A DNA stretch of 64,000 bases from a virus: positions 26,630 to 90,629 of the IMG/VR virus record IMGVR_UViG_3300029177_000001. The stretch is one strand, 5' to 3'. Shown piece after piece: positions 1,413-48,422 of the stretch (its first letter is position 1; every line of letters begins with the position of its first letter). Under the pieces are notes generated by a model. It was not told where the DNA came from, ran no database searches, and saw nothing but the letters and a program-made list of their open reading frames with translations. The position numbers and the translations under genes were made by a program.

Positions 1413-2876
1413 ATGGCAAAGAAAATCAGAAAAAAGACTTTATCTCTGGAATCATACCTGGAGGAAATAGTAGAAGAGGATATCAGTGATAACCAGGATG
1501 TACAAAGGTTATTTTGTTGGGAAAATGGGATGATAAATGAGTTGATCAAAACGGTATTGACCGATGATTATATTCCTCCGATTATTTTGGGCGAAGAAGA
1601 TTTAGATGAAGATGTCGTGCAGCAATATATCGTAGATGGAATGCAAAGAAGTTCTGCATTGATTAAATTTAAGCATGAAAACTATAAAATTACAGCTACT
1701 TTAGAAGATCCGATTATCCAATATCAGAGAAAAAAGAAAGATGAAAACAATAAAATCTGTAAAGATGAATATGGAAAAGTTATTTGGGAATCTGTTGAAT
1801 ATGATTTGAGAAGAAAAACATATGAAATGTTGCCGCCAGAATTGAAAAAAATGTTTGATGATTATCAGATTGATATTACAATACATCAACACTGCACGAT
1901 GTCACAGATTAGTAAGTTGGTGAGAAGATATAACAATCATTTGGGAATGAATACATCTCAGAAAGCATTTACTTATATTGATTTACATGCAAGAAAAATA
2001 AGGACAATATCTGAGAAAAATAAATTCTTTAAAAATTGTATGTCTTGTTCCGGTAAACAGCAATCGAAAGGTATTAGAGAAAGACTTGTATGTGAATCTG
2101 TCATGACAACGTTTTTCTTTGATAACTGGAAAAGTGCAATAAAAAATATGAGCAAATACCTAAATGAGAATGCAACAGAAGAACATTTTGATACTGTAAA
2201 TGAATATTTTAGCAGGATTGAATCTGTGTGCAAAGATAATTTCACAGAAGTGTTTGTGCCAAAAAATGTTATTGTTTGGATTCCTGTGTTTAAAGAGTTT
2301 GCTAAATTTGGATTAGATGATATTAAGTTTAAGGATTTTGTAGAAGAATTTGAAAAGTCTTTATATAAAAAAGATGTAAATGGAGTAACATTTGACAAAT
2401 TAAACGAGGATCGTCATACAAAAGGCAAGGCTATTTTAAAAGAGAAAATTAACATCTTAACTGCTCTCATGAAAGAGTATTTACATATTAAAGAAGATGA
2501 AGGAAACTTTGTTGAAGTAGAAGAGAATAATGTAATTGAAAATGTTTGTACAGAACAGAATACACTAGAATTCATCAGACATAACGTAAAAGAAGATGTT
2601 ATCGAAGATGATATTGAATTGTACAAATCACTGCTAGAAGACTGGTCAGTGGAAGTGGATAATTCGTCAAAACTTCTTGAACCTGGAAATAATAATTCAT
2701 TACTTGCCGTAATTGCATACAGTATTGAAAATGAACTTGATGAAGAAATTCCGGCATGGATGATGAGTTTCTTTAAGAGAAACGATACATATATTAAAGA
2801 TCAGAAAGAGAATTATACATATATGGTGAATGATCTTAGTGAATTTTTGAGACATAAATATGAACTTGCTGGATAG
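1413..2876 (+). CDS. DUF262 (ParB/Srx-fold, GmrSD N-terminal-like) domain protein
   Basis: N-terminus 'QRLFCWENGMINELIKTVLTDDYIPPIILGEE...QYIVDGMQRSSALIKF' matches the DUF262 pattern (QR..W, IP.I, DGQQR-like 'DGMQR'). C-terminal 300 aa unassigned. Confidence 0.7.
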   Translation: MAKKIRKKTLSLESYLEEIVEEDISDNQDVQRLFCWENGMINELIKTVLTDDYIPPIILGEEDLDEDVVQQYIVDGMQRSSALIKFKHENYKITATLEDPIIQYQRKKKDENNKICKDEYGKVIWESVEYDLRRKTYEMLPPELKKMFDDYQIDITIHQHCTMSQISKLVRRYNNHLGMNTSQKAFTYIDLHARKIRTISEKNKFFKNCMSCSGKQQSKGIRERLVCESVMTTFFFDNWKSAIKNMSKYLNENATEEHFDTVNEYFSRIESVCKDNFTEVFVPKNVIVWIPVFKEFAKFGLDDIKFKDFVEEFEKSLYKKDVNGVTFDKLNEDRHTKGKAILKEKINILTALMKEYLHIKEDEGNFVEVEENNVIENVCTEQNTLEFIRHNVKEDVIEDDIELYKSLLEDWSVEVDNSSKLLEPGNNNSLLAVIAYSIENELDEEIPAWMMSFFKRNDTYIKDQKENYTYMVNDLSEFLRHKYELAG

Positions 2877-2893
2877 ATGGAGGTGAATAATAT

Positions 2894-3055
2894 ATGGATA
2901 AAACATTTTGGAACATAATGTCAGTAGGTGGATTAATTACATCGTGTTTAGCCGGCGCTAGATTATATGAAATTGGAGAAGAAGCATTTTTCTATGGATT
3001 TGTATTGGGTATCGGAGCATTGATGTTCGCTGCAAAATATATGGGAGATGAATAG
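2894..3055 (+). CDS. small membrane protein (53 aa)
   Basis: Not in ORF track (<60 aa). ATG 2894 preceded by ggaggtg. Translation MDKTFWNIMSVGGLITSCLAGARLYEIGEEAFFYGFVLGIGALMFAAKYMGDE has two hydrophobic segments. Confidence 0.45.
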   Translation: MDKTFWNIMSVGGLITSCLAGARLYEIGEEAFFYGFVLGIGALMFAAKYMGDE

Positions 3056-3159
3056 GAAAGAAAATGACAGTGGAAGAAATGCGACAGAAGATTGAAGAGC
3101 CGACAGGAGCAGAGATCGAGATTGTATAAATGTAATAATTAAAAAAGGAGAAATAAATT

Positions 3160-3924
3160 ATGTGTGAATTTAAAAGTGGAATTATTTTTAAGAATAGGGT
3201 GGAACTTGCGCCATTAGGGAATGAAAGTCATTCAAGTTTACTTGAAAACTTGGATGTAGAAGATAATGAATTTAATGCTTCTAAGAAATTTGTGAGAGCA
3301 GAATTAATTCCGCCAGAGAGATATGTTATCACTTCTGATATTTCAAAGTGGACTTATAAAGTCGATCAGGATATTGTGCCAGAATGGTATAGTAACGATC
3401 CAGAGAGATATGAAGAGGAATTTAAAGAATCTGTTAAGAATTTTATGGATAAAAATTTTACAGATGAATTTGGATATTATTGGACAAACATTCGAATGGA
3501 TGGAAAGATATATCATTTTATGTATGGAGTTCTTACGAAGATGAGTTTTGGTAGCAATAATAATTACGCAGAATCTTCTGTAAGAAAATATCTTAAAGAG
3601 CACAAACTTGCAAAAGACATTAAAGATAAATATGGGAATAGTATTGTTCCGTTTGAAAATAACTTGCTTAGTATGGATGGATTTAATGATTATGGCGTTG
3701 TAAAAGACGATGTATTATCTATTCCGACATTTTATTTATTCAGAAAATGTGGTGAAAAACTTCCATTAATCAATTATGCATACTGGCAGTCAACTCCAAA
3801 CCAGACACCGTCAAGAAAAGATTCTTCCTATGTTCAGGTTGTCTACAGTGGTGGGAACATGGGTTACGACGATTGCTGCTGGCTTGATCATGGGGTTCGT
3901 CCGTTTTTTATCACCGAATCTTAA
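3160..3924 (+). CDS. DGR variable (target) protein, C-terminal C-type-lectin/DUF1566-like fold
   Basis: C-terminus 'YWQSTPN...SYVQVVYSGGNMGYDDCCWLDHGVRPFFITES' contains the VR. The '...W..HGVRP' ending is typical of CLec-fold DGR targets. RBS aaaggag upstream of ATG 3160. Confidence 0.9.
   Translation: MCEFKSGIIFKNRVELAPLGNESHSSLLENLDVEDNEFNASKKFVRAELIPPERYVITSDISKWTYKVDQDIVPEWYSNDPERYEEEFKESVKNFMDKNFTDEFGYYWTNIRMDGKIYHFMYGVLTKMSFGSNNNYAESSVRKYLKEHKLAKDIKDKYGNSIVPFENNLLSMDGFNDYGVVKDDVLSIPTFYLFRKCGEKLPLINYAYWQSTPNQTPSRKDSSYVQVVYSGGNMGYDDCCWLDHGVRPFFITES
3826..3905 (+). repeat. DGR variable region (VR)
   Basis: 80-nt alignment to 4411..4490 at constant offset 585. 13 mismatches, every one at an A in TR. 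All 55 non-A positions identical. Confidence 0.93.
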
Positions 3925-3953
3925 ATCTGTTTATCTTGTCGATAACATTTTGT

Positions 3954-3998
3954 GGAGACGAAGACAGAACAATGCGCAAGCGTTGTTCGTAAGTCTCC
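3954..3998 (+). promoter_or_regulatory. stem-loop downstream of VR with GCAA (GNRA) tetraloop
   Basis: Inner hairpin 3967..3988 'gaacaatgc-GCAA-gcgttgttc' (9 bp including one G-U). Outer pairing ggagac(3954-3959)/gtctcc(3993-3998). Lies 49 nt 3' of the VR end. Confidence 0.7.
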
Positions 3999-4027
3999 GA
4001 AGAACTAAATGCAAGATTGGGGGTCAT

Positions 4028-4381
4028 GTGGAAGTTATTACAAAAGCTATTGATTTGATGCAGTATACATATTCTGTAACTTCAAATAAAAAGAGATATC
4101 CTGCGAAATATAGAATGCTTATAGAACGAATCCAGAATGAGTGTATGAATATATATGATTTCTTAATGAGCGCAAATAGAGTACAACTGAATATTGATAG
4201 ACAAGAAAGATTGGAATTGCAAACAAAATCGATTTCGTCATGTGACAAATTGTCCTGCTATGTTGAATTATCAATGAATATTAACCTTATAGGATCAGAT
4301 ACAGTTGAATATTGGCAGAAAAAGATATGCGATGTTAAGTACATGACAATAGCATGGAGAAGCAAAGATAAAACAAGATAA
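4028..4381 (+). CDS. avd: DGR accessory variability determinant (Avd)
   Basis: C-terminal 117 aa of ORF 3776..4381 ('VEVITKAIDLMQYTYSVTSNKKRYPAKYRMLIERIQNECMNIYDFLMSANR...'). Helical, basic, Avd-like size, and located between target and TR. Start uncertain: GTG 4028 after ggggg, or ATG 4058. Confidence 0.7.
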   Translation: MEVITKAIDLMQYTYSVTSNKKRYPAKYRMLIERIQNECMNIYDFLMSANRVQLNIDRQERLELQTKSISSCDKLSCYVELSMNINLIGSDTVEYWQKKICDVKYMTIAWRSKDKTR

Positions 4382-4410
4382 AATTTTTTTTGGTTGTTTG
4401 CTATATGACT

Positions 4411-4490
4411 TCCTATGTTCAGATTGTCAACAGTAATGGGAACATGAATTACAACGATTGCAACTGGAATAATCATGGAGTTCGTCCGTT
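4411..4490 (+). repeat. DGR template region (TR)
   Basis: Invariant copy of VR. Rich in AAC/AAT codons in the target reading frame (SYVQIVNSNGNMNYNDCNWNNHGVRP). Confidence 0.93.
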
Positions 4491-4609
4491 CTGGATCGGA
4501 AGACGAAATAGAGTAAGAGAAACACTGAAATTAGAGTCCCGATATCAAAAGAGCAAACAACCTTTCCTGTCTAATCAAAGACAGGATAAATACAAAGGTA
4601 GAATATATC
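4411..4609 (+). ncRNA. DGR template RNA (TR plus spacer region preceding RT)
   Basis: Non-coding 119-nt spacer between TR and the RT start contains hairpin cctgtct(4566-4572)/agacagg(4579-4585). ORF-track ORF 4390..4623 is just a translation of this RNA. Confidence 0.7.
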
Positions 4610-5647
4610 ATGATAAAAGGTAAAACAGATTTTGAAAAGGTATCGGATTTTGAAAATTTATATAAAGCGTATTTGGATTCAAAAGGTGGAAGAGGATTCA
4701 CAAAAAGCAGAATTAAATTTGAAATATCTGCCCTTGATGGGGTGTACCAGATTAAAAGACTTTTAGAAACAAAGAGATATGAAGTAGATAGATATAACAG
4801 ATTCAAAGTATATGAACCAAAAGAGAGAATTATAGAAGCAGGAAGTTTTAAAGACAAGATTGTGCAGCACAGTTTGTGTGACAATGTACTTCTTCCTATT
4901 TTAAGTAAGGAGTTTATATACACGAATTATGCTGGACAAGTAGGTAAAGGGACATTGTTTGGCTTAGACTGTTTGAAATATCAGATGTATTTAGCATATC
5001 AAAAATATGGATATGATTGCTGGATTATCAAAGGAGATATCAAAAAATTTTTTTATAATATTGAGCATGATGTTTTGAAAGATATTGTTTCTTACTTTAT
5101 ATCAGATTCAGATACATATTGGCTGTGCGAGAAATTCATTGATAGCACAAGTGAAAAAGGTCTACCGCTTGGAAATCAAGTTAGTCAGGTATTTGCTTTG
5201 TTATATCTCTCTGGTTTTGATCATTTTATAACCGGAGAATTAGGAATTAAATATTACGGGAGATACATGGATGATTTTTACTTAATTGTAGAATCAAAAG
5301 ATTATGCAAAATTCTGTTTACATGCTGCTGAAGAGTTTACTAAAACATTAGATATTGATCTGAATGAAAAAACTCAGATTATTCCTTTTAAAAATGGAAT
5401 TAAATTTTGTGGTTTTCACACCTATGTTACAAAAGATGGAAAAGTGATAAGAAAACTTGCAAATGAAAAGAAGAGAAAAGCAAAAAAGAAATATCGAAAA
5501 ATGGCAAAGATGTTAAGAGAGAATAAGTTATCAAAAGAAAAATTCCTAGAATCTTATGAATCTTGGAAGAATCATATTTCACATGGAAATTGTGTGAAAT
5601 TCACGTATGAGATGGACAAAATGGTGAATGAAATACTGTTTGGTTGA
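4610..5647 (+). CDS. DGR reverse transcriptase
   Basis: Motifs 'LPLGNQVSQVFALLYL' ([LIV]GxxxSQ, DGR hallmark), 'GRYMDDFYLIV' (YMDD) and 'IKFCGFH'. About 345 aa, typical DGR RT size. Confidence 0.93.
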   Translation: MIKGKTDFEKVSDFENLYKAYLDSKGGRGFTKSRIKFEISALDGVYQIKRLLETKRYEVDRYNRFKVYEPKERIIEAGSFKDKIVQHSLCDNVLLPILSKEFIYTNYAGQVGKGTLFGLDCLKYQMYLAYQKYGYDCWIIKGDIKKFFYNIEHDVLKDIVSYFISDSDTYWLCEKFIDSTSEKGLPLGNQVSQVFALLYLSGFDHFITGELGIKYYGRYMDDFYLIVESKDYAKFCLHAAEEFTKTLDIDLNEKTQIIPFKNGIKFCGFHTYVTKDGKVIRKLANEKKRKAKKKYRKMAKMLRENKLSKEKFLESYESWKNHISHGNCVKFTYEMDKMVNEILFG

Positions 5648-5796
5648 AATGTCGATTTCATCTGAAAATAAACACAATATATAGTGGTTCTGGTTAGGTA
5701 CAAATACTACATATTGTATGTATAATTCCTGAGATGGAAGTCATATACGGACAGTCATTGCAAGAAATGAATTGCAATGCGACAACTGTCACTTCG

Positions 5797-5901
5797 TCAA
5801 TTATCTCTTAGGATAATGGCGATAATGCTCATGGACGAATTCCCACTTCTGGAGCCGGAACCGCCAATAAGCATCGACATGAACCATATTATATTCAGCA
5901 T
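5797..5901 (-). CDS. candidate minus-strand mini-ORF (34 aa, hydrophobic)
   Basis: Minus-strand aggag (plus 5910-5914) lies 8 nt before ATG (5901). Peptide MLNIIWFMSMLIGGSGSRSGNSSMSIIAIILRDN. Lies in a 390-nt gap with no credible + ORF. Confidence 0.3.
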   Translation of the reverse strand: MLNIIWFMSMLIGGSGSRSGNSSMSIIAIILRDN

Positions 5902-6038
5902 AAAATCATCTCCTGGTTTCATGCAGACGAAAATATATCGCATGAATTTATCTGGATGATTTCTTGTATGTGGTGGTTGTCATAAAACAGTATATAACAA
6001 AATTTGAATGAAAGCAAATAGAAAAGGAGAATAAAACT

Positions 6039-6410
6039 ATGACAGTATATGATTTAGTAGCAATTGTGAATTTACTAGAAGACAAAAAACAAAAAGATTA
6101 TGGGTTTGCTTTATACAAGGAAGAATATGAATTACTTAGAACAGCAAGCTTAGAAAATACACTTGTAGTTGTTAATGCAAGAGGAAAAGATAGGAGAGTA
6201 TTAGGAAAAGTAAAAGTGATTTTACCTGCGAGTGTATATGGTAAATATCCTACAGCTCAGGTAGTTGGCGTTGTTAATATGGAGGCATATTCAAAACGTA
6301 AAGAGGAAGAAGAACGTATTGATAGAATCAAAGAAATAAATCGTTTAATTAATAAGAACAATAGAGAGTTAGTGAATTTAATGACAGAACTAAGAAAATT
6401 AGAAGGGTAA
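6039..6410 (+). CDS. hypothetical protein (C-terminal coiled coil)
   Basis: aaaaggag RBS before ATG 6039. No domain recognised. Confidence 0.6.
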   Translation: MTVYDLVAIVNLLEDKKQKDYGFALYKEEYELLRTASLENTLVVVNARGKDRRVLGKVKVILPASVYGKYPTAQVVGVVNMEAYSKRKEEEERIDRIKEINRLINKNNRELVNLMTELRKLEG

Positions 6411-6427
6411 AAGGAGAAATAAATAAT

Positions 6428-6610
6428 ATGAAATATCCATTCCAGTGCTCTAAATGTGGACACAAAGAAATTATTACAATGTCAATGAAAGAATACGTAG
6501 GAGAAGGGCATATGTGTCCTGAATGCGGAGAAGAAATGCAACGAGAAATTGACTCGATGGTCTGTAGAAGTATTGATAAAACAGGAGACTTTTACAGAAG
6601 CTTCAATTAA
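6428..6610 (+). CDS. zinc-ribbon protein (FmdB-like CxxC...CxxC)
   Basis: 'FQCSKCGH...HMCPECGEEM' has two CxxC pairs. aaggag RBS. Confidence 0.6.
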   Translation: MKYPFQCSKCGHKEIITMSMKEYVGEGHMCPECGEEMQREIDSMVCRSIDKTGDFYRSFN

Positions 6611-6624
6611 CGATTTATAAAAGT

Positions 6625-6695
6625 TGTGGATTAGTGTAACTGGTAGCACGATGCAGCGTGGCACATAAGTAAAGGTTCGATTCCTTTATCTACAA
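6625..6695 (+). tRNA. tRNA-like element with aberrant anticodon arm (possible pseudo-tRNA)
   Basis: Hand fold: 7-bp acceptor tgtggat/atctaca, U8, D arm gtgt-aactggta-gcac with GG, and perfect T arm aaagg-TTCGATT-ccttt. The 20 nt between position 26 and the T arm give no 5-bp stem with a 7-nt loop. No encoded CCA. Confidence 0.4.
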
Positions 6696-12959: not shown

Positions 12960-13778
12960 ATGGATAACAGCAATTTAGCAAAAAGAATGAAACAATATGA
13001 AAGTGTTTCAAAATCAACATTGATAAGACGTATGCCAGTGATCATCAGGCTTGACGGTAGAAGTTTTCATACATTTACAAAAGGGTTTAAAAGACCATTC
13101 GATGATGTATTAGTAAAAACAATGCAAGAGACAATGAAATACCTTTGTGAAAATATTCAAGGATGTGTATTAGGTTATACGCAGTCTGATGAAATTACAC
13201 TTGTGTTAGTAGATTATAAGAACTTAGATTCTCAACCTTGGTTTGATGATGAAGTGCAGAAGATATGTAGTATTGCAGCAAGTATGGCAACTATGGCTTT
13301 TAATAAAAATTTTGAACTTTTTTCTTTAACGATGCGATTAAAAGACTCTGTAGAAAGTAATAAACTTGGTGCAGTATATAAACAAGCAATGAATAAAGGT
13401 GCAATGTTTGATGCAAGATGTTTCAATATTCCAAAAGAAGAAGTAACTAATAATATTTACTGGAGACAACTTGATGCAACGAGAAATTCTATTCAAATGG
13501 TAGGACAAGCTAATTTTTCACATAAAGAATTACAGAATAAATCGTGCAATCAAATTCAAGACATGTTATTTACACAAAAAGGAATTAACTGGAATGATAT
13601 TTCTACATATTTAAAAAGAGGAAGTTGCTGCATTAGAGAAAATTATATTTTTGAAAATTCAAACCCAAATGGTGAGACGTGTGTAGAACGAAGTCGTTGG
13701 ATAATCGACAAAGAAATCCCTATTTTTAAGGGTGAGAATAGAGAATATATTAATAGATTGGTATATGTAGGAGAATAA
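12960..13778 (+). CDS. tRNA(His) guanylyltransferase family protein (Thg1-like, 3'-5' nucleotidyl transferase)
   Basis: 'MKQYESVSK...RMPVIIRLDGRSFHTFTKGFKRPFDDVLVKTMQETM...GYTQSDEITLVL' matches the Thg1/TLP N-terminal catalytic pattern (RxDG..F, KP.D, SDE). Confidence 0.85.
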   Translation: MDNSNLAKRMKQYESVSKSTLIRRMPVIIRLDGRSFHTFTKGFKRPFDDVLVKTMQETMKYLCENIQGCVLGYTQSDEITLVLVDYKNLDSQPWFDDEVQKICSIAASMATMAFNKNFELFSLTMRLKDSVESNKLGAVYKQAMNKGAMFDARCFNIPKEEVTNNIYWRQLDATRNSIQMVGQANFSHKELQNKSCNQIQDMLFTQKGINWNDISTYLKRGSCCIRENYIFENSNPNGETCVERSRWIIDKEIPIFKGENREYINRLVYVGE

Positions 13779-22499: not shown

Positions 22500-24335
22500 A
22501 TGGTAGAAAATAAAGATAAAAAATATAATTCAGATAAACATTGGGAACTTGTAAATTTTTGTGAATTTGATAAGTATGCAACAAAAAGCTACTGTGCAAT
22601 TCACGATGTAGATGAAAGTAAAAATCTTGGTGATATCACAAAGGTCGATGAAACTGAATTAGATGATTTTAATATGATTTGTGGAGGATCACCGTGCCAG
22701 GATTTCAGCGTGGCAGGAAAACAAAAGGGGTCTGTATGGACTTGTAAAGATTGTGGACATGAATATAATCCATTAACAGTTCATTGGAGTAAAAGAGATT
22801 GTTGTCCGAATTGTAAAAGCGAAAATATTGAAAAAACAAGATCATCTCTTCTTGTAGAATATTTACGAGTAGTTAGAGCAAATAAACCTAATTTTGGAAT
22901 TTATGAGAATGTAAAAAATATTGTTGGGAAACAGTTTAAAGATACAACTTTTAAATTATTTACTGATGAATTAGAGGAATATGGATATAACGTATATTGG
23001 AAGGTTTTGAATGCTAAAAATTATGGAATTCCACAGAACAGAGAACGTGTATATCTATTATTTATTAAAAAGGATTTGGATAATGGTAAGTTTGAATTTC
23101 CGGAACCTTTTGATAATGGTCTGAGATTGAAAGATTTATTAGAAGATAAAGTTGATGAGAAGTTTTATATTTCTGATGAGAAAGTTAATAGATTTATTAC
23201 AAATTTAAATGACAAAAATTCTTTATTATATGATCCATGCCAAGTAAAAAGAGAAGGAAAGAGCAGAGAATATTCTGAATATGCACCAACATTAACTTCG
23301 AGAGATTATAAAGATCCAAGATTAGTAAATGAAAATGTTGTAAGACAAGTTGGAAATATTTCCGATTGTAATGGAGCATGGGACAATCCGCAAGTAGGGA
23401 GAGTTTATGATGTAAGTGGTTGCAGTCCAACATTGAATACATGCAGTGGTGGTGGTCATGAACCGAAGGTTATTACAGGAATTGATAAGTCATATAACAA
23501 TCCAAAATTCATTGAAACAGCTAATTGTATTACTTCACGAGAAGATCGTGGTGTTTCAAATAGGGAATCCGAAGGTACAGCAGTTTTAGAAACTCCAAAT
23601 ATTAGTTATTGTTTGGATTCTAACTATTACAAAGGAACAACAATAGAACAATATATGAATAAACATCGTAGACAATTGATAGTCGAAAATAATAAAGTTG
23701 CAATCAGACAAGCCACTAAGCAAGGTTATATCGAATGTGAAGTAGGTGGAGTTGCAGATTTGTCTTATCCAGACAGTAAAACTAGAAGAGGCCGAGTACA
23801 GGATAATGGGAATACATGTCCGACAATTACTGCAACAGAAACAGGCATTTGTAGAATTGAGCCTAAAGAAAGATTTTTTAAACAAGCACTTGAAACTTTA
23901 AATGAAAATGATTGTAACTCTGGAGATACAATTAATGCATTTAATAAACATGTAGATAAAAGTGGGTATTCTCCTACATTAACAACAAGACCAGAAGGAT
24001 TTAAAACAGCAATTCTACCAGTTACAGATGATATTAGAATTCGTAAGCTAACTCCAAAAGAGTGTTTCAGGCTCATGGGATTTTCTGATGAAAATTTCGA
24101 TGCAGCACAGAAAGCAGGAGTTTCAAATAGTCAATTATATAAACAGGCAGGTAATTCAATTGTGGTAGATGTTCTTTATTACATATATGTAGAGTTATAT
24201 AAAGCTATGCCTTATTTGTTTGATGATCTGAAATTAAGTAGTTTCTTTTCAGGAATTGGCGCTTTTGAGATTGCGCTTGATAAATTATATAAAGGTATCA
24301 ATTCCGGAAATTTTATCAATCCACAGACAGAGTAA
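22500..24335 (+). CDS. DNA (cytosine-5)-methyltransferase, SPR-like with several TRD-like modules, motif I at the C-terminus
   Basis: 'GGSPCQDFSVAGK' (IV), 'ENVKN' (VI), 'QNRERV' (VIII), 'RKLTPKECFRLMGF' (IX), 'LYKQAGNSIVVDVL' (X), then 'LSSFFSGIGAFEIAL' (I) at aa 580-594. About 330-aa variable region with repeated T(L/I)T modules. Zn-ribbon insert 'CKDCGH...CCPNCK'. Confidence 0.9.
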   Translation: MVENKDKKYNSDKHWELVNFCEFDKYATKSYCAIHDVDESKNLGDITKVDETELDDFNMICGGSPCQDFSVAGKQKGSVWTCKDCGHEYNPLTVHWSKRDCCPNCKSENIEKTRSSLLVEYLRVVRANKPNFGIYENVKNIVGKQFKDTTFKLFTDELEEYGYNVYWKVLNAKNYGIPQNRERVYLLFIKKDLDNGKFEFPEPFDNGLRLKDLLEDKVDEKFYISDEKVNRFITNLNDKNSLLYDPCQVKREGKSREYSEYAPTLTSRDYKDPRLVNENVVRQVGNISDCNGAWDNPQVGRVYDVSGCSPTLNTCSGGGHEPKVITGIDKSYNNPKFIETANCITSREDRGVSNRESEGTAVLETPNISYCLDSNYYKGTTIEQYMNKHRRQLIVENNKVAIRQATKQGYIECEVGGVADLSYPDSKTRRGRVQDNGNTCPTITATETGICRIEPKERFFKQALETLNENDCNSGDTINAFNKHVDKSGYSPTLTTRPEGFKTAILPVTDDIRIRKLTPKECFRLMGFSDENFDAAQKAGVSNSQLYKQAGNSIVVDVLYYIYVELYKAMPYLFDDLKLSSFFSGIGAFEIALDKLYKGINSGNFINPQTE

Positions 24336-35090: not shown

Positions 35091-36119
35091 ATGAATCTGA
35101 AACAAATTAAAGAAACGATAAAGAAACAAGAATATGATTTCTTAAAAGAGAATGAGCACTTAGGTAACAATATTATCTTACTTACGCTTGGCGGCAGTCA
35201 CGCATATGGAATGGATAAAGAGGACAGTGATTTAGACGTAAGAGGAGTTACACTAAATAGCAAAGAGGAAATTCTTCTTGGAAAAGACTTTGAACAGGTT
35301 GTAGAGATTGATACAGATACGACAGTTTATTCATTCAATAAAATTTTACAATTACTAAAATCAAACAATCCTAACACTATTGAAATTTTAGGATGTAAAC
35401 CTGAGCATTATTTATATTTGTCTGATGTTGGAAGAGAATTGTTAAATAATAGAAAAATGTTCTTATCCAAGATTTGTATTAATTCTTTTGCAGGATACGC
35501 TTCAAGTCAATTAAGGCGTATGGAGAACAAAGCTGCTAGATTAGTTGGACAAGCACAAAATGAAGAGTACATTTTAAAATCAATTAATAATGCAAGTTAT
35601 GATTTTAAAAATCGTTATTTCCCAATGAATGATGGATCACTCAATCTTTATACAGATAAAGCAGTACAGGAAGGCTATGACACTGAAATTTTTATGGATA
35701 TTGACTTGCGACATTATCCTCTAAGAGATTGGGCTGGTATGTGGAATGAGATGAAAGCTATTGTAAGTAGTTATAACAAAATCGGTAGGCGAAACGAAAA
35801 AGCAATGAACAAGGACAAACTTGGAAAGCATATGGCTCATTTGATCAGATTATACATGATGTGTATTGACATTCTTGAAAAAGAAGAAATTATCACTTAT
35901 CGAGATAAAGAACATGATCTACTTATGAGTATACGAAACGGAGAATACTTAGATATCAATAGGCAGCCAACTTCTGAATTTTATGATTTGCTAAATGAAT
36001 ATGAAAAACGATTCGATTACGCTAAAGAAAATACTTCGTTGCCAAATGTACCGGACTACAAGAGAATCGAAGAGTTTAAAATGTATGTAAATGAACGAAT
36101 TGTGAAAGGAGATATATAA
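35091..36119 (+). CDS. PF10127 (RlaP)-type nucleotidyltransferase
   Basis: 'ILLTLGGSHAYGMDKEDSDLDVRGV' is a Pol-beta-superfamily NTase G[SG]..YG...SD.D motif as in the PF10127 family. Confidence 0.7.
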   Translation: MNLKQIKETIKKQEYDFLKENEHLGNNIILLTLGGSHAYGMDKEDSDLDVRGVTLNSKEEILLGKDFEQVVEIDTDTTVYSFNKILQLLKSNNPNTIEILGCKPEHYLYLSDVGRELLNNRKMFLSKICINSFAGYASSQLRRMENKAARLVGQAQNEEYILKSINNASYDFKNRYFPMNDGSLNLYTDKAVQEGYDTEIFMDIDLRHYPLRDWAGMWNEMKAIVSSYNKIGRRNEKAMNKDKLGKHMAHLIRLYMMCIDILEKEEIITYRDKEHDLLMSIRNGEYLDINRQPTSEFYDLLNEYEKRFDYAKENTSLPNVPDYKRIEEFKMYVNERIVKGDI

Positions 36120-37081
36120 TGGATATTTCTGAAAAACTGAAAGAACGTTTCTGTAAAGATTGTAATATTCCATTGAAACTATTTAAGGAACCATATTTTA
36201 CAGACAGACTTCAATTATATGATAACTATTACAATACATTGGATAAATGGAATATTTTTGTAAGAGAATTAGATAAATATAAGTGTGAGCAAGATTATCT
36301 TGAAGAATATAATCGAGTAAAGAATGCTGCAATAAAGGACATTAAAGATTCTGATGGTTACAAGAGATTTAATGTAGAAGACATGAATAAGTACACAGTA
36401 AAATACAAAGATCTTCCGGGAAAAGATATTTATAAACCATCAAACATCGGAAAACTGTTTATCAGTATTGATATGAGAAAGGCAAATTTTTCAGCATTAA
36501 AATTTTATGATAAAAGTATTTTTAGTAACTCTGATACATGGGAAGAATTTATTGAAAGATATACGGAGAATAAACATATCGTAAACAGCAAATATATTAG
36601 ACAAGTCATTCTTGGAAACTGTAATCCTAAAAGGCAGGTGACTTATGAAAAATATTTGATGGGTCTTGTATTAGAAGTTCTTATTGATGAATTAGGATAT
36701 TCCACTAGTGATATTGCGTTTTACTCTAATGATGAAATTGTTATTGATATGGGAAAATATAAAGGCTGTATAAATAAACAAAAAATATTAGAAATGGCAG
36801 TTAACGTACGTTTTAATATTCCATTCAGGATTGAATTGTTTTACTTACACAAAATTACTGGTACAGATGGATATTACAAGGAAATTGTAAAAAATATTAT
36901 TGAAATAGAATATGAATTTAAATGCTTAAACAATTATACATTACCATTTGTGCTGAGAAAGTTTAATGGAGAAGAAATCACTGAAAACGATAAAGTATTT
37001 TATCATGAAGGGCTACTATCAAAGTTTATGGAAGTACCAAATATGGAGGTAAAATTGAATGAAAATAAATATTCCGTCTGA
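36119..37081 (+). CDS. hypothetical protein (possible palm-type nucleotidyltransferase)
   Basis: Coupled on both sides (ATG overlaps upstream stop; 23-nt overlap with cca). 'ISIDMRKANFSAL' and 'FYSNDEIVID' are loosely reminiscent of family-A polymerase motifs A and C. Very tentative. Confidence 0.55.
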   Translation: MDISEKLKERFCKDCNIPLKLFKEPYFTDRLQLYDNYYNTLDKWNIFVRELDKYKCEQDYLEEYNRVKNAAIKDIKDSDGYKRFNVEDMNKYTVKYKDLPGKDIYKPSNIGKLFISIDMRKANFSALKFYDKSIFSNSDTWEEFIERYTENKHIVNSKYIRQVILGNCNPKRQVTYEKYLMGLVLEVLIDELGYSTSDIAFYSNDEIVIDMGKYKGCINKQKILEMAVNVRFNIPFRIELFYLHKITGTDGYYKEIVKNIIEIEYEFKCLNNYTLPFVLRKFNGEEITENDKVFYHEGLLSKFMEVPNMEVKLNENKYSV

Positions 37082-38396
37082 TGCAAATGAGTTGATTCAT
37101 ACACTTCAAAATCACGGAAATTCCGCTTATGTGGTAGGTGGTTGTGTAAGAGATAGCATCATTGGAAGACAAATTCACGATTGGGATATTTGTACATCTG
37201 CAACACCAGACGAAATGCTGGAGATTTTTAAGGATAAAAAAGTAATTGAAACTGGCTTAAAACACGGAACTATAACTGTTGTGGTAAAAGGAGAATCATA
37301 TGAATTAACAACATTTCGTATTGATGGAAAATATTCTGATAGTCGTAGACCTGATTCAGTAATTTTCACAAGTAGTTTAATTGAAGATTTAAAGAGACGT
37401 GATTTCACAATCAATGCAATGGCATATAATGATGACGAAGGATTAATTGATCCATTTGGGGGATTAGAAGATATTGAATATAAAAAAATTCAATGTGTAG
37501 GTTCTGAAAAAGATAGATTTGGAGAAGATGCTTTAAGGATCTTGAGAGCAATTCGTTTTGCTTCTCAACTTGAATTTGTGATGACCCCGGAAACAAGTTA
37601 TGAAATCAATAAACAATACAAAAATTTGAAGAATATTTCGATTGAGAGAATAAATAGTGAGTTTTGCAAAATCGCCGCATCAAGAGATTTCTGTGTAGAA
37701 ATGGTTTTATATAAAGATGTGTTTGCATTGTTTATACCGGAATTAAAAGATATGTTTGAATTCCAACAGAATAACCCATATCACGATTATGATGTTTACA
37801 GTCATACAGTACATTCAATTGAACATTGTAAATCCGATAATTTGGTTGTTAGATTGGCGGTTTTCTTTCATGATATTGGAAAACCTCATTCATTTCAAGA
37901 TGGCGAAGACGGTATTAGACACTTTAAAGGACATGGAAAAGTTAGTGCAGACATTACAGACAATATTATGAAACGTCTCAAATTTGACAATGAGACAAGA
38001 AATAATGTGGTTGAATTGGTGTATTACCATGATGCAACCTTTGAGGTTGGTAAAAAATATGTGAGAAGATGGATCAATAAGATTGGAGTAGAACAGTTTA
38101 GAAGACTATTGGAAGTTAGGAAAGCAGATATTTTAGGGCAGAAAGAATCTTATGAGCAGTATAGGATTAACAAAGTTAATAATATTAAACAAATTCTTGA
38201 AGAAGTTCTACGAGAAGAAACATGTTTTACACTTAAAGATTTAGCTGTCAATGGCAACGATTTAATGAGTATTGGTTATAAAGAAAACAAAGAATTAGGC
38301 AATACACTAAATGAATTATTACGATTAGTAATTGATGAAGAATGTCCTAATAAAAAAGAAAAATTATTAGAAGTAGCAATTGAAAGGAGAATGTAA
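37059..38396 (+). CDS. cca: CCA-adding enzyme (tRNA nucleotidyltransferase) with HD domain
   Basis: 'YVVGGCVRDSIIGRQIHDWDICT', 'RRDFTINAMAY', 'EDALRILRAIRFASQL' and HD 'FFHDIGKP'. ggaggt RBS. Confidence 0.9.
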   Translation: MKINIPSDANELIHTLQNHGNSAYVVGGCVRDSIIGRQIHDWDICTSATPDEMLEIFKDKKVIETGLKHGTITVVVKGESYELTTFRIDGKYSDSRRPDSVIFTSSLIEDLKRRDFTINAMAYNDDEGLIDPFGGLEDIEYKKIQCVGSEKDRFGEDALRILRAIRFASQLEFVMTPETSYEINKQYKNLKNISIERINSEFCKIAASRDFCVEMVLYKDVFALFIPELKDMFEFQQNNPYHDYDVYSHTVHSIEHCKSDNLVVRLAVFFHDIGKPHSFQDGEDGIRHFKGHGKVSADITDNIMKRLKFDNETRNNVVELVYYHDATFEVGKKYVRRWINKIGVEQFRRLLEVRKADILGQKESYEQYRINKVNNIKQILEEVLREETCFTLKDLAVNGNDLMSIGYKENKELGNTLNELLRLVIDEECPNKKEKLLEVAIERRM

Positions 38397-47321: not shown

Positions 47322-48422
47322 GTGGAGAAGAATTATGTACCAACTAAAGAAGAGTTGTACAACGAGATTATTAGAGTATATAAGAAATGCGAAAAAATGA
47401 ACAAGATAATTCTAAAGGAAGAATCTAATATAGAAATAAGTGATTATTGTTTACATAAGCATGGAGGACTACAAAAGATATGTAAGGAATTGAATATACC
47501 ATTTACATTCCACCAAAGAGTTGATCATAAGGATGTTGTTCAAGATTTATTGAGGGTATTTAATGAGCATCAATATTTAAGTACAGAAAGTTATAAGAAA
47601 TACGGTAAATATTCTGTTACCTGCGTTAAAGATCATTTTGATGGATCTTTTAATAAAGCATTAGAAACTCTTAATTTACCTATTAATATGTATAAGAATG
47701 TTACGAAAAAAGATATTAAAGATGACGTTTTAGAAATATTTAAAGACAAAAAAGTTAGTAGTACTGTTTACAGACGCGATGGCAAATATTCACAATCTAC
47801 CATTGAACGATTATTTGGTTCATGGAAAGGACTAATGAAAGAAATGGATTTGCCATATACTTCACATGATTATGGATTTGATGAAATGTTAAGGCAATTA
47901 AATAATGTGTATGAAAAATATGGATGCATAAATAAAACACTGATAGATGAGGAATGTGACTTTACTTATCAGGCATTGAAATATTATATAAAAGATAAAG
48001 AAGAACTATGTAAATTACTTAATAAAGAAAATTTGTTTTCAGATTCTTTGAGTGTAAAAGCTAATCTTTTAAGACGTATATTATATTTATTATTCGGAGA
48101 TGAAAATATTGAATCTGAAAAAACATGGAGTTGGTTAAAAAATGATAAAACTCAAAAAAATCTATATGTTGATTTCTATATAGATAAATTTAATTTAGCA
48201 ATTGAATACGATGGAATACAACATTACAAGATGTATACAAGTTTTCATAGAACTGAACAAGATTTCATTGACTCTTGCGCTAGAGATAAATTAAAAGAAA
48301 AACTTTTAAAGCAACACAAAATTGATTTAATAAGAATCCCATATACATTAAAGTTATGTGAAAAAAATGTAAATAATCTTGTAATTAGCAACTTATTAAG
48401 TAAGAATGGAACGAAAATATGA
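47322..48422 (+). CDS. free-standing homing-endonuclease-like protein (4 HEN-associated repeats + DUF559/Vsr-like nuclease domain)
   Basis: Four repeats of about 55 aa ending in '...G(G/S)(L/F/W)(Q/N/K)K(I/A/G)...L(N/D)(I/L)P(F/I/Y)'. C-terminal 'LYVDFYIDKFNLAIEYDGIQH...IDLIRIPY' is DUF559-like. Confidence 0.6.
   Translation: MEKNYVPTKEELYNEIIRVYKKCEKMNKIILKEESNIEISDYCLHKHGGLQKICKELNIPFTFHQRVDHKDVVQDLLRVFNEHQYLSTESYKKYGKYSVTCVKDHFDGSFNKALETLNLPINMYKNVTKKDIKDDVLEIFKDKKVSSTVYRRDGKYSQSTIERLFGSWKGLMKEMDLPYTSHDYGFDEMLRQLNNVYEKYGCINKTLIDEECDFTYQALKYYIKDKEELCKLLNKENLFSDSLSVKANLLRRILYLLFGDENIESEKTWSWLKNDKTQKNLYVDFYIDKFNLAIEYDGIQHYKMYTSFHRTEQDFIDSCARDKLKEKLLKQHKIDLIRIPYTLKLCEKNVNNLVISNLLSKNGTKI

Follow-up and report, generated by a model that had tools for sequence, protein, structure and literature searches.

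A diversity-generating retroelement with a small lectin-fold target among the early genes of a gut phage

The interval 3160-5647 of the 64-kb stretch of phage DNA analysed here (the window) is almost certainly a canonical diversity-generating retroelement (DGR) that is active at present. The mechanism is the known one, and what is unusual is the target, a small soluble protein with a predicted lectin fold that is encoded among early and conflict-type genes, not among tail genes. The element resides in a temperate phage (prophage) of about 157-166 kb, whose hosts are gut Lachnospiraceae of the Mediterraneibacter gnavus group. Phage DGRs are usually explained as receptor-switching tools. Surveys leave a large class of viral targets as 'unknown, possibly non-structural' (PMC8144416), and the non-structural phage targets described so far are anecdotal cases (PMC8008677). 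The locus is a clean and tractable example, with the cassette and both targets of the lineage in early or accessory regions, a target that is small and soluble, and intense natural diversification.

The cassette and its diversification

The original prediction proposed a complete canonical DGR in the order target (with its variable repeat, VR), hairpin, Avd, template repeat (TR), spacer and reverse transcriptase (RT). All five parts were found in this order and at the predicted positions on the plus strand (Table 1).

Table 1. Features of the DGR locus, in window coordinates
Feature	Coordinates	Strand	Remarks
Ribosome-binding site of target gene (GGAG)	3147-3150	+	own site, 9 nt upstream of the 3160 ORF
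DGR target gene	3160..3924	+	ORF, 254 aa, soluble, two domains
N-terminal domain of target, aa 1-98	3160..3453	+	uncharacterised alpha/beta domain
C-terminal DUF6273-type C-type-lectin-fold domain (predicted), aa ~100-254	3457..3921	+	
Variable repeat (VR)	3824..3912	+	in target ORF; adenine-templated variable part 3824-3905
Hairpin downstream of VR	3954..3998	+	inner and outer stem
Avd accessory protein, 117 aa	4028..4381	+	GTG start
Template repeat (TR)	4409..4497	+	585 nt downstream of VR
TR-RT spacer, 112 nt	4498..4609	+	presumed 3' part of the DGR RNA, by analogy with Bordetella DGR RNA
DGR reverse transcriptase, 345 aa	4610..5647	+	

The VR/TR pair carries the adenine-specific signature of these elements. 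Over the first 82 nt the two repeats differ at 13 positions, every one of them at a TR adenine (12 further TR adenines are unchanged), and the probability that 13 random mismatches would all fall on the 25 adenines among these 82 bases is 1.2e-8. The three mismatches that do not involve a TR adenine (3906, 3908 and 3909) form a 3' boundary block that is IMH-like. Read in the VR frame, the TR contains eight AAY codons for Asn. No further VR copy was found on either strand of the 64-kb window when up to 12 non-A mismatches were allowed.

The hairpin lies about 55 nt past the end of the VR, not immediately after it, and consists of a 9-bp inner stem (3967-3975/3980-3988) with a GCAA loop and an outer stem (3954-3959/3993-3998). 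Its DNA fold has a z-score of -3.4, with none of 200 shuffled sequences folding as well, and because it lacks a T-run it is not an intrinsic terminator. The spacer contains an 8-bp hairpin (4565-4586) in the RNA fold, and the same stem was recovered in a scan for terminators and promoters. The promoter and terminator consensus scans did no better than shuffled sequences and are therefore silent on the timing of expression.

Both protein components can be assigned. Avd matches phrog_3206, 'Avd protein of DGR' (3.9e-17), and it is a divergent member of the NF033474 family (DivGenRetAVD; 5.6e-8, 33 bits, below the model cut-off of 80); the match to Pfam bAvd is weak (0.0078). The RT matches RVT_1 (1.1e-13) and phrog_1423 (1.2e-106) and carries YMDD as well as LPLGNQVSQ, a sequence of the [ILV]GxxxSQ form usual in DGR RTs. 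Its best solved relative is 8ub7_A (5.7e-31), which we take to be the Bordetella phage DGR RT; group II intron RTs match at 1e-12 and retron-type RTs at about 1e-10. The closest phage relatives are verified DGR RTs, those of nd12 (47.5% identity), nd4 (39.5%), the Faecalibacterium phage DGRs of FP_Toutatis and FP_Brigit (36-38%) and the Bordetella phages. By these best matches, rather than by a formal phylogeny, the RT groups within the DGR clade, the placement on which the prediction depended. In PADLOC-DB its best match is a generic RT model, not a DRT class.

Natural variation among related phages points to continuing activity. Along 3,202 nt, the only bases that set a locus from another sample (L014) apart from the window are six in the VR, each at a TR-A site, and one in the TR. 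In one 90%-identity cluster (1,545 members) the VR peptides differ in 15 of the 15 members listed, 9 of which share identical residues 1-221. Across 118 homologues of the target, the residues of highest entropy are exactly the eight positions of the TR-Asn codons, with a mean of 2.89 bits at these positions versus 0.93 bits over residues 1-221. Of the RT loci, the 50 closest (L030-L079, for the most part viral contigs of 60-215 kb) include 48 with the same layout, in which 7-22 VR mismatches occur and 81-100% of these are at adenines. Losses also occur: Avd-TR-RT has been removed precisely or partly at L011, L017, L022, L024-L027, L029 and L110-L133, and in RT-less relatives the hairpin goes with it (a deletion of 3952-5642). 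These many relatives without Avd-TR-RT, together with the presence of the exact VR allele of the window on 23 contigs from several samples, might suggest a decaying relic with old VR/TR differences, in which diversification has ended in this phage, but that idea is hardly credible given the intact RT, Avd and TR of the window, the confinement of the L014 changes almost wholly to A-templated VR bases, and the sister clusters in which identical scaffolds bear a new VR on almost every contig.

The target protein and its N-terminal domain

The target is encoded by a full-length ORF with its own ribosome-binding site, and among the best 120 of its 843 homologues nearly all are 253-271 aa long; the concern that it might be a fragment of a longer tail-fibre gene is thus unfounded. 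An AF2 model (pLDDT 94.7) and structural matching gave a C-lec fold that ends in the VR. In this model residues ~100-254 (about 155 of the 254) appear to adopt a DUF6273-type C-type-lectin fold (Pfam PF19789-like), so that the earlier statement that the N-terminal 200 aa are unrecognisable holds only for the first ~98 aa. The VR, at the 3' end of the ORF, encodes the variable face of this fold, and the diversified codons sit on a beta-hairpin and loop surface of the AF2 model.

The protein has a maximum KD19 of 0.53, no hydrophobic segment and a pI of 5.1, and no signal peptide or TM segment was found in it. Pfam, PHROGs and structural searches detected no similarity between the target and structural protein families, and PADLOC-DB gave no specific match for the target, Avd, the DUF262-like and sigma-like proteins or the upstream genes. 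Another ORF of 254 aa (28862-29626) was considered as a paralogue of the target and rejected, since it shows no similarity. Relatives of the target are encoded by Mediterraneibacter gnavus / Lachnospiraceae bacterium 2_1_58FAA (WP_009245529.1, 88% identical), Lachnospiraceae bacterium 6_1_37FAA (72%) and Eubacterium plexicaudatum ASF492 (52%). Related prophages occur in cultured gut Lachnospiraceae.

The N-terminal domain (N-domain) brings out a large and uncharacterised family of early genes, in which it is fused to hypervariable C-terminal modules. Its signature is MCxFKSGII..NESHS..FVRAELIP..VDQDIVPDWY, and the family as a whole is defined by about 95 aa at or very near residue 1 with the NESHS and VDQDIVPDW motifs. 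An exhaustive profile search with profile A4 recovered 1,238 protein clusters (a word-indexed search gave mostly fragments), in which the domain is nearly always N-terminal; 114 of 144 sampled proteins start with MC. The C-terminal partners are fast-evolving modules, either 9-aa tandem repeats, DUF4116 or C-lec, and the repeat partners show a weak resemblance to beta-helical proteins of spikes and baseplates (phrog_9992, 8.6e-7; weak Gp5_trimer_C). The N-domain has no match in Pfam or PHROGs and was not found in a plasmid collection, it occurs in three INPHARED records only, and a BFVD structural search returned uncharacterised proteins only. The invariant Met-Cys was considered as a possible source of an Ntn-hydrolase-like or intein-like catalytic Cys, an idea left unsupported by the small size of the domain and by the lack of such a structural match.

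Beyond the present locus, all nine N-domain contexts checked (Dulem virus 35 and eight prophages) are phage early regions, with CI-like repressors, antirepressors, DUF1351, ERF, SSB, methylases, nucleases and an integrase as neighbours. Porphyromonas phage005b was dropped as a further context; its translated protein resembles the family in the repeat domain alone, the N-terminal part being different.

Genomic setting, second target and known systems

Upstream of the target lie a gene for a sigma-like protein (748-1392; phrog_351, 1.1e-5) and one for a GmrSD_N/DUF262 protein (1413-2876), and the context described in the original prediction, which also included small Zn-ribbon genes, is present. 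The accompanying remark that no structural gene is nearby was borne out by the 30 largest ORFs of the 64-kb window, for which PHROGs gave no structural match; about 90 kb of the phage genome lies beyond. Genes for replication, nucleotide metabolism and early functions are found in the window along with Thg1-like, CCA-adding and methyltransferase genes. In all related phages the target is a syntenic member of the early region, with a PemK gene and a divergent HTH_26 repressor-like gene some 4.5-6 kb upstream of it.

The DGR probably does not have a single target, to judge from the sequences of related phages. A second small lectin gene, with a remote VR that is rewritten from the same TR, is located about 18 kb upstream, a position outside this window, in 20 of 20 close relatives, and its VR carries the same C>T change at the 3' boundary in 19 of the 20. 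The neighbours of this second target are genes for a DUF6551 protein, Uma2, ParE, a Bro-N antirepressor and an integrase. When viral and metagenome collections were scanned with the strict TR pattern, only RT-less relatives and the second target were recovered.

In general design the cassette resembles the BPP-1 DGR (Mtd, Avd, bRT): the two share the target(VR)-Avd-TR-RT order, adenine-specific mutagenesis, a C-lec fold that has the VR as its C-terminal part, a non-A 3' block and a hairpin after the VR, and the BPP-1 enzyme is the closest solved RT. The present system differs in its 254-aa target with an unrelated N-domain and a DUF6273-type lectin, and in the location of the cassette in the early region of a phage of about 160 kb. 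The Mtd gene sits in a tail module. Mtd itself is a 381-aa tail-fibre-tip protein with a beta-prism and a beta-sandwich before the C-lec (Baykov et al., PMC10743442); N-terminal domains of these types are absent from the target model, which has the 98-aa alpha/beta domain instead.

Small DUF6273-only DGR targets of gut phages have been described by Baykov et al. 2023 (PMC10743442). The second targets of nd4 and nd12, two myoviruses of 33-46 kb, are like the present target small soluble DUF6273 C-lec proteins whose VR is a C-terminal beta-hairpin, and nd4_tgt2 (WRQ08026.1, 234 aa) is a homologue of it, with 26% identity over aa 74-248. However, these proteins lack the N-domain, and the same DGR also targets a large Ig-domain 'tentaclin'. 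The tentaclin architecture (N-terminal DUF6273, VR near the 5' end, Ig-like/Fn3 domains) is not matched by the present target, with its VR at the 3' end, its lack of Ig or Fn3 domains and its length of 254 aa.

Non-structural phage DGR targets have precedents in Quimbyvirus, in nd4 tgt2 and, as shown here, in FP_Brigit, where a small lectin gene (AUV56625.1) that is a distant homologue of the target's lectin domain carries a remote VR between cro-like genes and exonuclease/RecT. In FP_Toutatis, only one VR was found within 24-54.7 kb of the isolate. Two-target DGRs of Faecalibacterium phages have been reported for FP_Brigit, Toutatisvirus and the Lelie/CP11 'small targets' (PMC11792537; bioRxiv 10.1101/2024.10.15.618418). 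They share DUF6273 lectin targets and the use of one TR for two VRs with the present system, but their cassette lies in the tail/Hoc module, their main target is a Hoc-like decoration protein, and their small targets lack the N-domain.

In Quimbyvirus, a 75-kb Bacteroides phage, a DGR target distal to the structural module lies in a defence/counter-defence island and was read as non-structural (Benler et al. 2021, PMC8008677). This remote target sits among methyltransferase, nuclease and tRNA-repair-type genes, and the window has comparable genes. The Quimbyvirus cassette and first target are, however, beside the tail fibres, so that only the remote target is non-structural, whereas in the present lineage, whose hosts are Firmicutes, the cassette and both known targets lie in non-structural regions. 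The proteins of the two systems are presumably unrelated outside the lectin fold.

Possible functions of the target

As to the mechanism, it is almost certain that the RT, together with Avd, copies the TR-spacer RNA, that adenines are misread in this step, and that the cDNA takes the place of the VR in the 3' terminal part of the target gene (3160-3924), which re-randomises about ten codons (the eight AAY codons plus ATT and CAT). We lean towards the view that the 254 aa form neither a tail-fibre protein nor a receptor-binding protein of the virion. The product is more probably a soluble two-domain protein of the cytoplasm that is expressed early and would provide a recognition module, diversified through the VR, in the service of exclusion, counter-defence or host takeover. 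With its diversified lectin face the protein would recognise a variable molecule of the host or of a rival phage, and the conserved N-domain would supply the common function, effector or anchor. We take this view because the 30 largest ORFs of the window are non-structural and the target keeps a syntenic early-region position in relatives, because the N-domain family occurs in early regions, FP_Brigit has a remote VR and the neighbours of the second target are non-structural, and because the target has neither a signal peptide or TM segment nor similarity to structural families. The suggestion in the original prediction of a role other than receptor binding on the virion is thereby strengthened, by synteny, by the N-domain contexts and by FP_Brigit, but it falls short of proof.

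A more specific form of the non-virion reading is offered tentatively. The DGR could serve as an intracellular 'antibody generator' of the phage, with the lectin face re-randomised against a fast-evolving host defence or rival-phage protein and the N-domain acting as inhibitor or effector; the N-domain proteins that end in tandem repeats, more than 1,200 in number, would then follow the same strategy of recognition without a DGR. Cyanobacteria provide the functional analogy for the favoured reading; their DGR targets are chromosomal multi-domain proteins (kinase or NTPase fusions) rather than a 254-aa phage protein. Vallota-Eastman et al. reportedly found in 2020 that these cellular DGRs act on the lectin domains of proteins used in intracellular signalling or sensing; as in the favoured reading, the diversified recognition domain is not surface-displayed. 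If the target of the present phage does work inside the cell, targeted hypermutation would join the phage repertoire of counter-defence or exclusion.

Several considerations count against the non-virion reading. To our knowledge, every experimentally characterised phage DGR target is displayed on the virion. In addition, gene position is not the same as expression timing, and large phages scatter some of their virion genes. PADLOC gave no defence family for the target or its neighbours, and about 90 kb of the phage genome lies outside the DNA analysed. The arguments given below for a virion role, from the layout of the protein, the repeat partners of the N-domain and the proposal made for nd4_tgt2, weigh here as well.

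The main alternative, which we consider rather unlikely, places the target on the virion as an accessory protein for receptor binding or adhesion, similar in function to Mtd or nd4_tgt2 but with a gene that happens to lie apart from the structural module; the N-domain would dock on the fibre, baseplate or capsid, and the DGR would tune adsorption. In its favour, Mtd and TvpA are built in the same way, with the VR at the end of a C-lec fold, and a conserved N-terminus followed by a hypervariable C-terminus is the classic layout of receptor-binding proteins. Repeat domains that accompany the N-domain in other proteins give weak matches to profiles of baseplate proteins and the gp5 beta-helix. 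The closest described relative, nd4_tgt2, was presumed by its authors to have an Mtd-like receptor-binding role on the host (PMC10743442), and the very high allele turnover is a pattern typical of structural targets according to Roux et al. (PMC8144416). Against it, structural comparison matched the N-domain to none of the known domains of fibres, baseplates or decoration proteins, the beta-prism and beta-sandwich of Mtd are missing ahead of the lectin domain, and the N-domain proteins are found beside repressors, antirepressors and recombination genes in each of the nine other contexts. Nor was a structural gene found for at least 60 kb on the downstream side (by the 30 largest ORFs of the window) or 7 kb on the upstream side. 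Should the target nevertheless be a virion protein, the N-domain would be a new attachment domain, and receptor-binding genes could hide in early regions.

A release of the target at lysis, or another action outside the cell by a protein that is no virion component, is improbable. Such a protein could, for instance, bind host-surface or gut glycans or mucus and so modify the environment or block receptors. The best structural match is the IgA peptidase of Thomasclavelia ramosa, DUF6273-type domains occur in secreted and surface proteins, and lectin folds commonly bind extracellular ligands. However, the target bears no signal peptide or anchor, and the early region would be an odd position for a product needed only after lysis.

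A complete cassette with an adenine-templated repeat

The original prediction of a complete diversity-generating retroelement (DGR) is borne out in every part: a target gene with its variable repeat (VR), a hairpin, the accessory protein (Avd), a template repeat (TR), a spacer and a reverse transcriptase (RT) are all present (see table). The two repeat copies form the longest direct repeat within positions 2500-6500. Compared base by base, they differ at 13 positions across the first 82 nt, and the TR base is A at 13/13; the 12 other TR adenines of this stretch are identical in the VR, and three non-A differences (3906, 3908 and 3909) close the repeat. Because the downstream copy always carries A at the differences, it is the TR, and the copy in the ORF is the VR. 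With 25 adenines among 82 bases, the probability that 13 random mismatches would all be placed at adenines is 1.2e-8. A TR with AAY (Asn) codons is the classic DGR design, and this one contains eight when read in the VR frame. Within the 64-kb window, no further VR-like copy was found on either strand. An ORF at 4390-4623 is spurious as a gene, being merely the TR read in frame.

Features of the DGR and remote targets in other phages
Feature	Position	Strand	Remarks
Target ORF	3160-3924	+	254 aa
VR	3824-3912	+	inside target ORF; direct repeat with TR, offset 585 nt
Hairpin	3967-3975/3980-3988		9-bp stem, loop GCAA, nested in outer 6-bp stem; ~55 nt past VR
Avd	4028-4381	+	GTG start; 117 aa
TR	4409-4497	+	downstream repeat copy
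TR-RT spacer			112 nt; contains 8-bp hairpin at 4565-4586
RT ORF	4610-5647	+	345 aa
AUV56625.1 (FP_Brigit)	L002 3948-4559; VR 4373-4468		compared with TR at L004 5633-5760
tgt2	L028 2058-2711; L156-L184		by synteny, would lie ~14 kb before position 1 of the window

By similarity the RT falls among DGR RTs, as the prediction supposed. It matches RVT_1 and phrog_1423 (1.2e-106) and carries the motifs LPLGNQVSQ and YMDD. Its nearest relatives among annotated phages, all RTs of verified DGRs, are those of nd12 (47.5%), nd4 (39.5%), FP_Toutatis (38%) and FP_Brigit (36%), and Bordetella phages are likewise matched. The best match among solved structures is 8ub7_A (328 aa, 5.7e-31), the Bordetella phage DGR RT; this match is 18 orders of magnitude better than those to group II intron RTs. 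Avd matches phrog_3206, "Avd protein of DGR", at 3.9e-17, and NCBIfam DivGenRetAVD at 5.6e-8, which is below that model's cut-off. At 3776-4381, gene callers used on public assemblies lengthen Avd upstream into a 163-aa ORF overlapping the target; the 117-aa form from the GTG at 4028 aligns end to end with Avd profiles. The hairpin after the VR is far more stable than shuffled sequences (z -3.4) and lacks a T-run.

Activity and loss of the element

L014, a 3,202-nt contig that comes from another sample, equals the window except for six VR bases (3868, 3869, 3877, 3878, 3883 and 3884), all six templated by TR adenines, and one TR base (4471). Among 118 full-length homologues of the target, variability peaks exactly at TR-Asn positions (229, 231, 233, 235, 237, 240, 242 and 243), plus 244 and 227; entropy at the TR-Asn positions averages 2.89 bits, versus 0.93 bits over residues 1-221. 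The 90%-identity cluster that includes WP_009245529.1 from Mediterraneibacter gnavus has 1,545 members; the VR peptides differ in 15/15 of those listed, and 9/15 are identical across residues 1-221. Of the 50 closest IMG/VR RT loci (L030-L079; mostly on contigs of 60-215 kb, with RT identities of 65-88%), 48 keep the VR-Avd-TR-RT layout, with 7-22 mismatches, 81-100% of them at adenines. These comparisons show that the DGR is active, and sequence alone could not make its mechanism, mutagenic retrohoming, more certain.

Three further observations concern variation in the repeats and near them. The TR itself varies at position 4471, where the window has A and L014, a phage otherwise identical to it, has G, leaving the latter one mutable adenine fewer. 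Residues 206-207 (window 3775-3780), which immediately precede the conserved YWLSTP motif, match the DGR-written sites in their variability across homologues (2.9 and 2.7 bits); with 44 nt between them and the start of the VR downstream, they are beyond TR writing. A VR allele identical to the window's is carried by 23 contigs (including L005-L010) that come from several unrelated samples, and in the sister cluster (P0006) nearly every contig has a different VR; the shared allele reflects either clonal spread of one lysogen or one favoured allele.

Many relatives (L011, L022, L024-L027, L029 and L110-L133) have lost exactly the segment corresponding to window 3952-5642, which holds the hairpin, Avd, TR and RT, and retain the target as an orphan whose VR can still be recognised. 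Two others (L017 and L018) keep Avd and have no RT. Insertion elements are found beside the cassette site, namely IS605/TnpB (L008, L011) and IS91 (L019, L020).

The target, its two halves and further targets

The original prediction gave the target some 200 unrecognisable N-terminal residues, and would have failed had the target been a fragment of a longer tail-fibre gene. It is a complete gene: of its 843 homologues, nearly all of the 120 best are 253-271 aa long. The unrecognisable part shrinks to ~98 residues, the remainder being a DUF6273-like lectin-fold domain; by sequence the target itself scores below the Pfam cut-off, which its homologues and tgt2 (the second target, below) reach. 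A confident AlphaFold2 model built from 45 homologues (pLDDT 94.7, pTM 0.89) places the VR in two beta-strands plus loops (aa 222-251), in agreement with the "VR beta-hairpin" that PMC10743442 reports for targets of the DUF6273 type. With a pI of 5.1 the protein is acidic, and it has neither a hydrophobic segment nor a signal peptide.

Run against 1.84 billion representatives, a profile of the N-domain (aa 1-98) matches 1,238 clusters, which make up a large uncharacterised family of phage early genes. Of the 150 best matches, all but four have the domain beginning no later than residue ~14, and 114/144 sampled proteins begin with Met-Cys. The usual C-terminal partner is a variable number of 9-aa tandem repeats closing with a conserved ...TKTIYQSGDWKLV tail; DUF4116 repeats or a C-type-lectin-fold (C-lec) domain occur occasionally. 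In Dulem virus 35 (L001 6001-6753) the N-domain protein follows cro/repressor genes. In eight prophages taken from genome assemblies, the genes around it encode CI-like repressors (HTH_3, Peptidase_S24), antirepressors (ORF6N/ORF6C, Bro-N), DUF1351, ERF, SSB, DNA methylases, a DUF2800 nuclease, HicB and integrase, and no structural gene lies beside the N-domain protein in these eight. Example repeats following the ~95-aa N-domain of this family (P0155-P0298; L146-L154) are MRDNSTVQN and YGSATVTA, and the repeat part resembles early-region proteins of mycobacteriophages (e.g. Che8 gp59) and Streptococcus phage Sfi19.

A distant homologue of the lectin half, AUV56625.1, is encoded by the Faecalibacterium phage FP_Brigit (MG711465.1) between HTH genes and exonuclease/RecT. 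Its 3' end differs from the FP_Brigit TR, 41 kb away, at eight positions, with adenines at 8/8, and shares a C>T boundary change with that phage's Hoc-like VR. AUV56625.1 is therefore a genuine second target of the FP_Brigit DGR, encoded in an early region and remote from the RT (41 kb).

Used as a search pattern with N in place of each A, the TR also revealed tgt2, a 217-aa DUF6273 protein with a different N-terminus, in related genomes. In 20/20 viral contigs that carry tgt2 plus an RT 82-88% identical to the window's, its 3' end aligns with the cognate TR with 11-20 mismatches, 310/330 of them at adenines and 19 a single constant C>T at the 3' boundary. In all 20 close relatives tgt2 holds a genuine second VR, served at a distance by the same TR; the window begins about 14 kb too late to include such a gene. 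In these relatives its distance upstream is ~18 kb from the RT and ~8 kb from the integrase, and its neighbours (a DUF6551 protein, Uma2, ParE, IS66 and a Bro-N antirepressor) are non-structural.

Genomic setting and possible role of the target

The window has 31% GC, a positive GC skew throughout and practically all genes on the + strand. The absence of nearby structural genes, noted originally, holds for the 30 largest ORFs: none is structural, and all belong to early functions, replication or nucleotide metabolism. They include a sigma-like protein, a DUF262/GmrSD_N protein, a DNA methyltransferase, a Thg1-like enzyme, a CCA-adding enzyme, a DnaB-like helicase, primase, exonuclease, HNH endonuclease, DNA polymerase, exonuclease V/Dda-like helicase, NAD-dependent ligase and NrdD/NrdG. 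L005 is 100% identical to the window across 9 kb. Contigs with an identical target protein carry the map further upstream: a tyrosine integrase comes first, followed by small genes, an AAA_16 ATPase, a divergent HTH_26 gene, a gene for a PemK toxin, the sigma-like gene, DUF262, a gene for a 53-aa membrane protein and finally target-Avd-TR-RT. More divergent target homologues (53-58% identity) occupy the same syntenic slot. Related viral contigs suggest a genome of about 157-166 kb. Hosts are Lachnospiraceae, namely Mediterraneibacter gnavus, Lachnospiraceae bacterium 6_1_37FAA and mouse isolates including ASF492 (52-54% identity); short near-identical stretches to Ruminococcus gnavus phages are consistent with such hosts.

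From this setting we infer that the target may well be an early-expressed, cytoplasmic recognition protein for host takeover, counter-defence or exclusion. A role off the virion is favoured because both halves of the protein sit in early regions of unrelated phages, because it has no secretion signals and no similarity to structural proteins, and because its neighbourhood is conflict-type. The main alternative, which is less likely, is a virion accessory adhesin whose gene is placed away from the structural genes. In favour of this, the protein's design resembles Mtd, its conserved N-terminus and variable C-terminus are like those of receptor-binding proteins, VR allele turnover is high, and the repeat paralogues of the N-domain family are weakly similar to beta-helix. 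PADLOC supported no catalogued defence or anti-defence system.

The system is of a known kind: it is a DGR, and non-structural phage targets have already been reported. Quimbyvirus has a second DGR target within a defence/counter-defence island (PMC8008677), and nd4_tgt2, a further homologue (26% identity), is a published small DUF6273 target (PMC10743442). What appears new is a DGR lineage with the cassette and both targets in early/accessory regions of a Firmicutes prophage of ~160 kb, a target whose N-domain belongs to a large uncharacterised early-gene family with tandem-repeat C-termini in its other members, and direct evidence of a remote early-region VR in FP_Brigit; no description of any of the three was found in the literature searched, the coverage of which is incomplete.

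Several other genes of the region may be recorded. Genes of tRNA-repair/counter-defence type comprise a Thg1-like tRNA-His guanylyltransferase, a DNA methyltransferase of 611 aa and two nucleotidyltransferases, among them the CCA-adding enzyme. The start of the DNA polymerase gene is adjoined by an HNH or homing endonuclease gene. The positions for this group of genes are 12960-13778, 35091-36119, 37059-38396, 22500-24335 and 47322-48422, and NAMPT/NadE-type NAD salvage genes occur in the early region of three relatives (L005, L009, L011). A tRNA-like element at 6625-6695 (+) reaches 46.9 bits with the Rfam tRNA model, whose gathering score is 29, yet ARAGORN calls no tRNA there. Its acceptor, D and T arms are normal, the anticodon arm consists of a 3-bp stem with a ~10-nt loop, and the element is kept at 92.7% in L023, where the flanks are ~80% identical.
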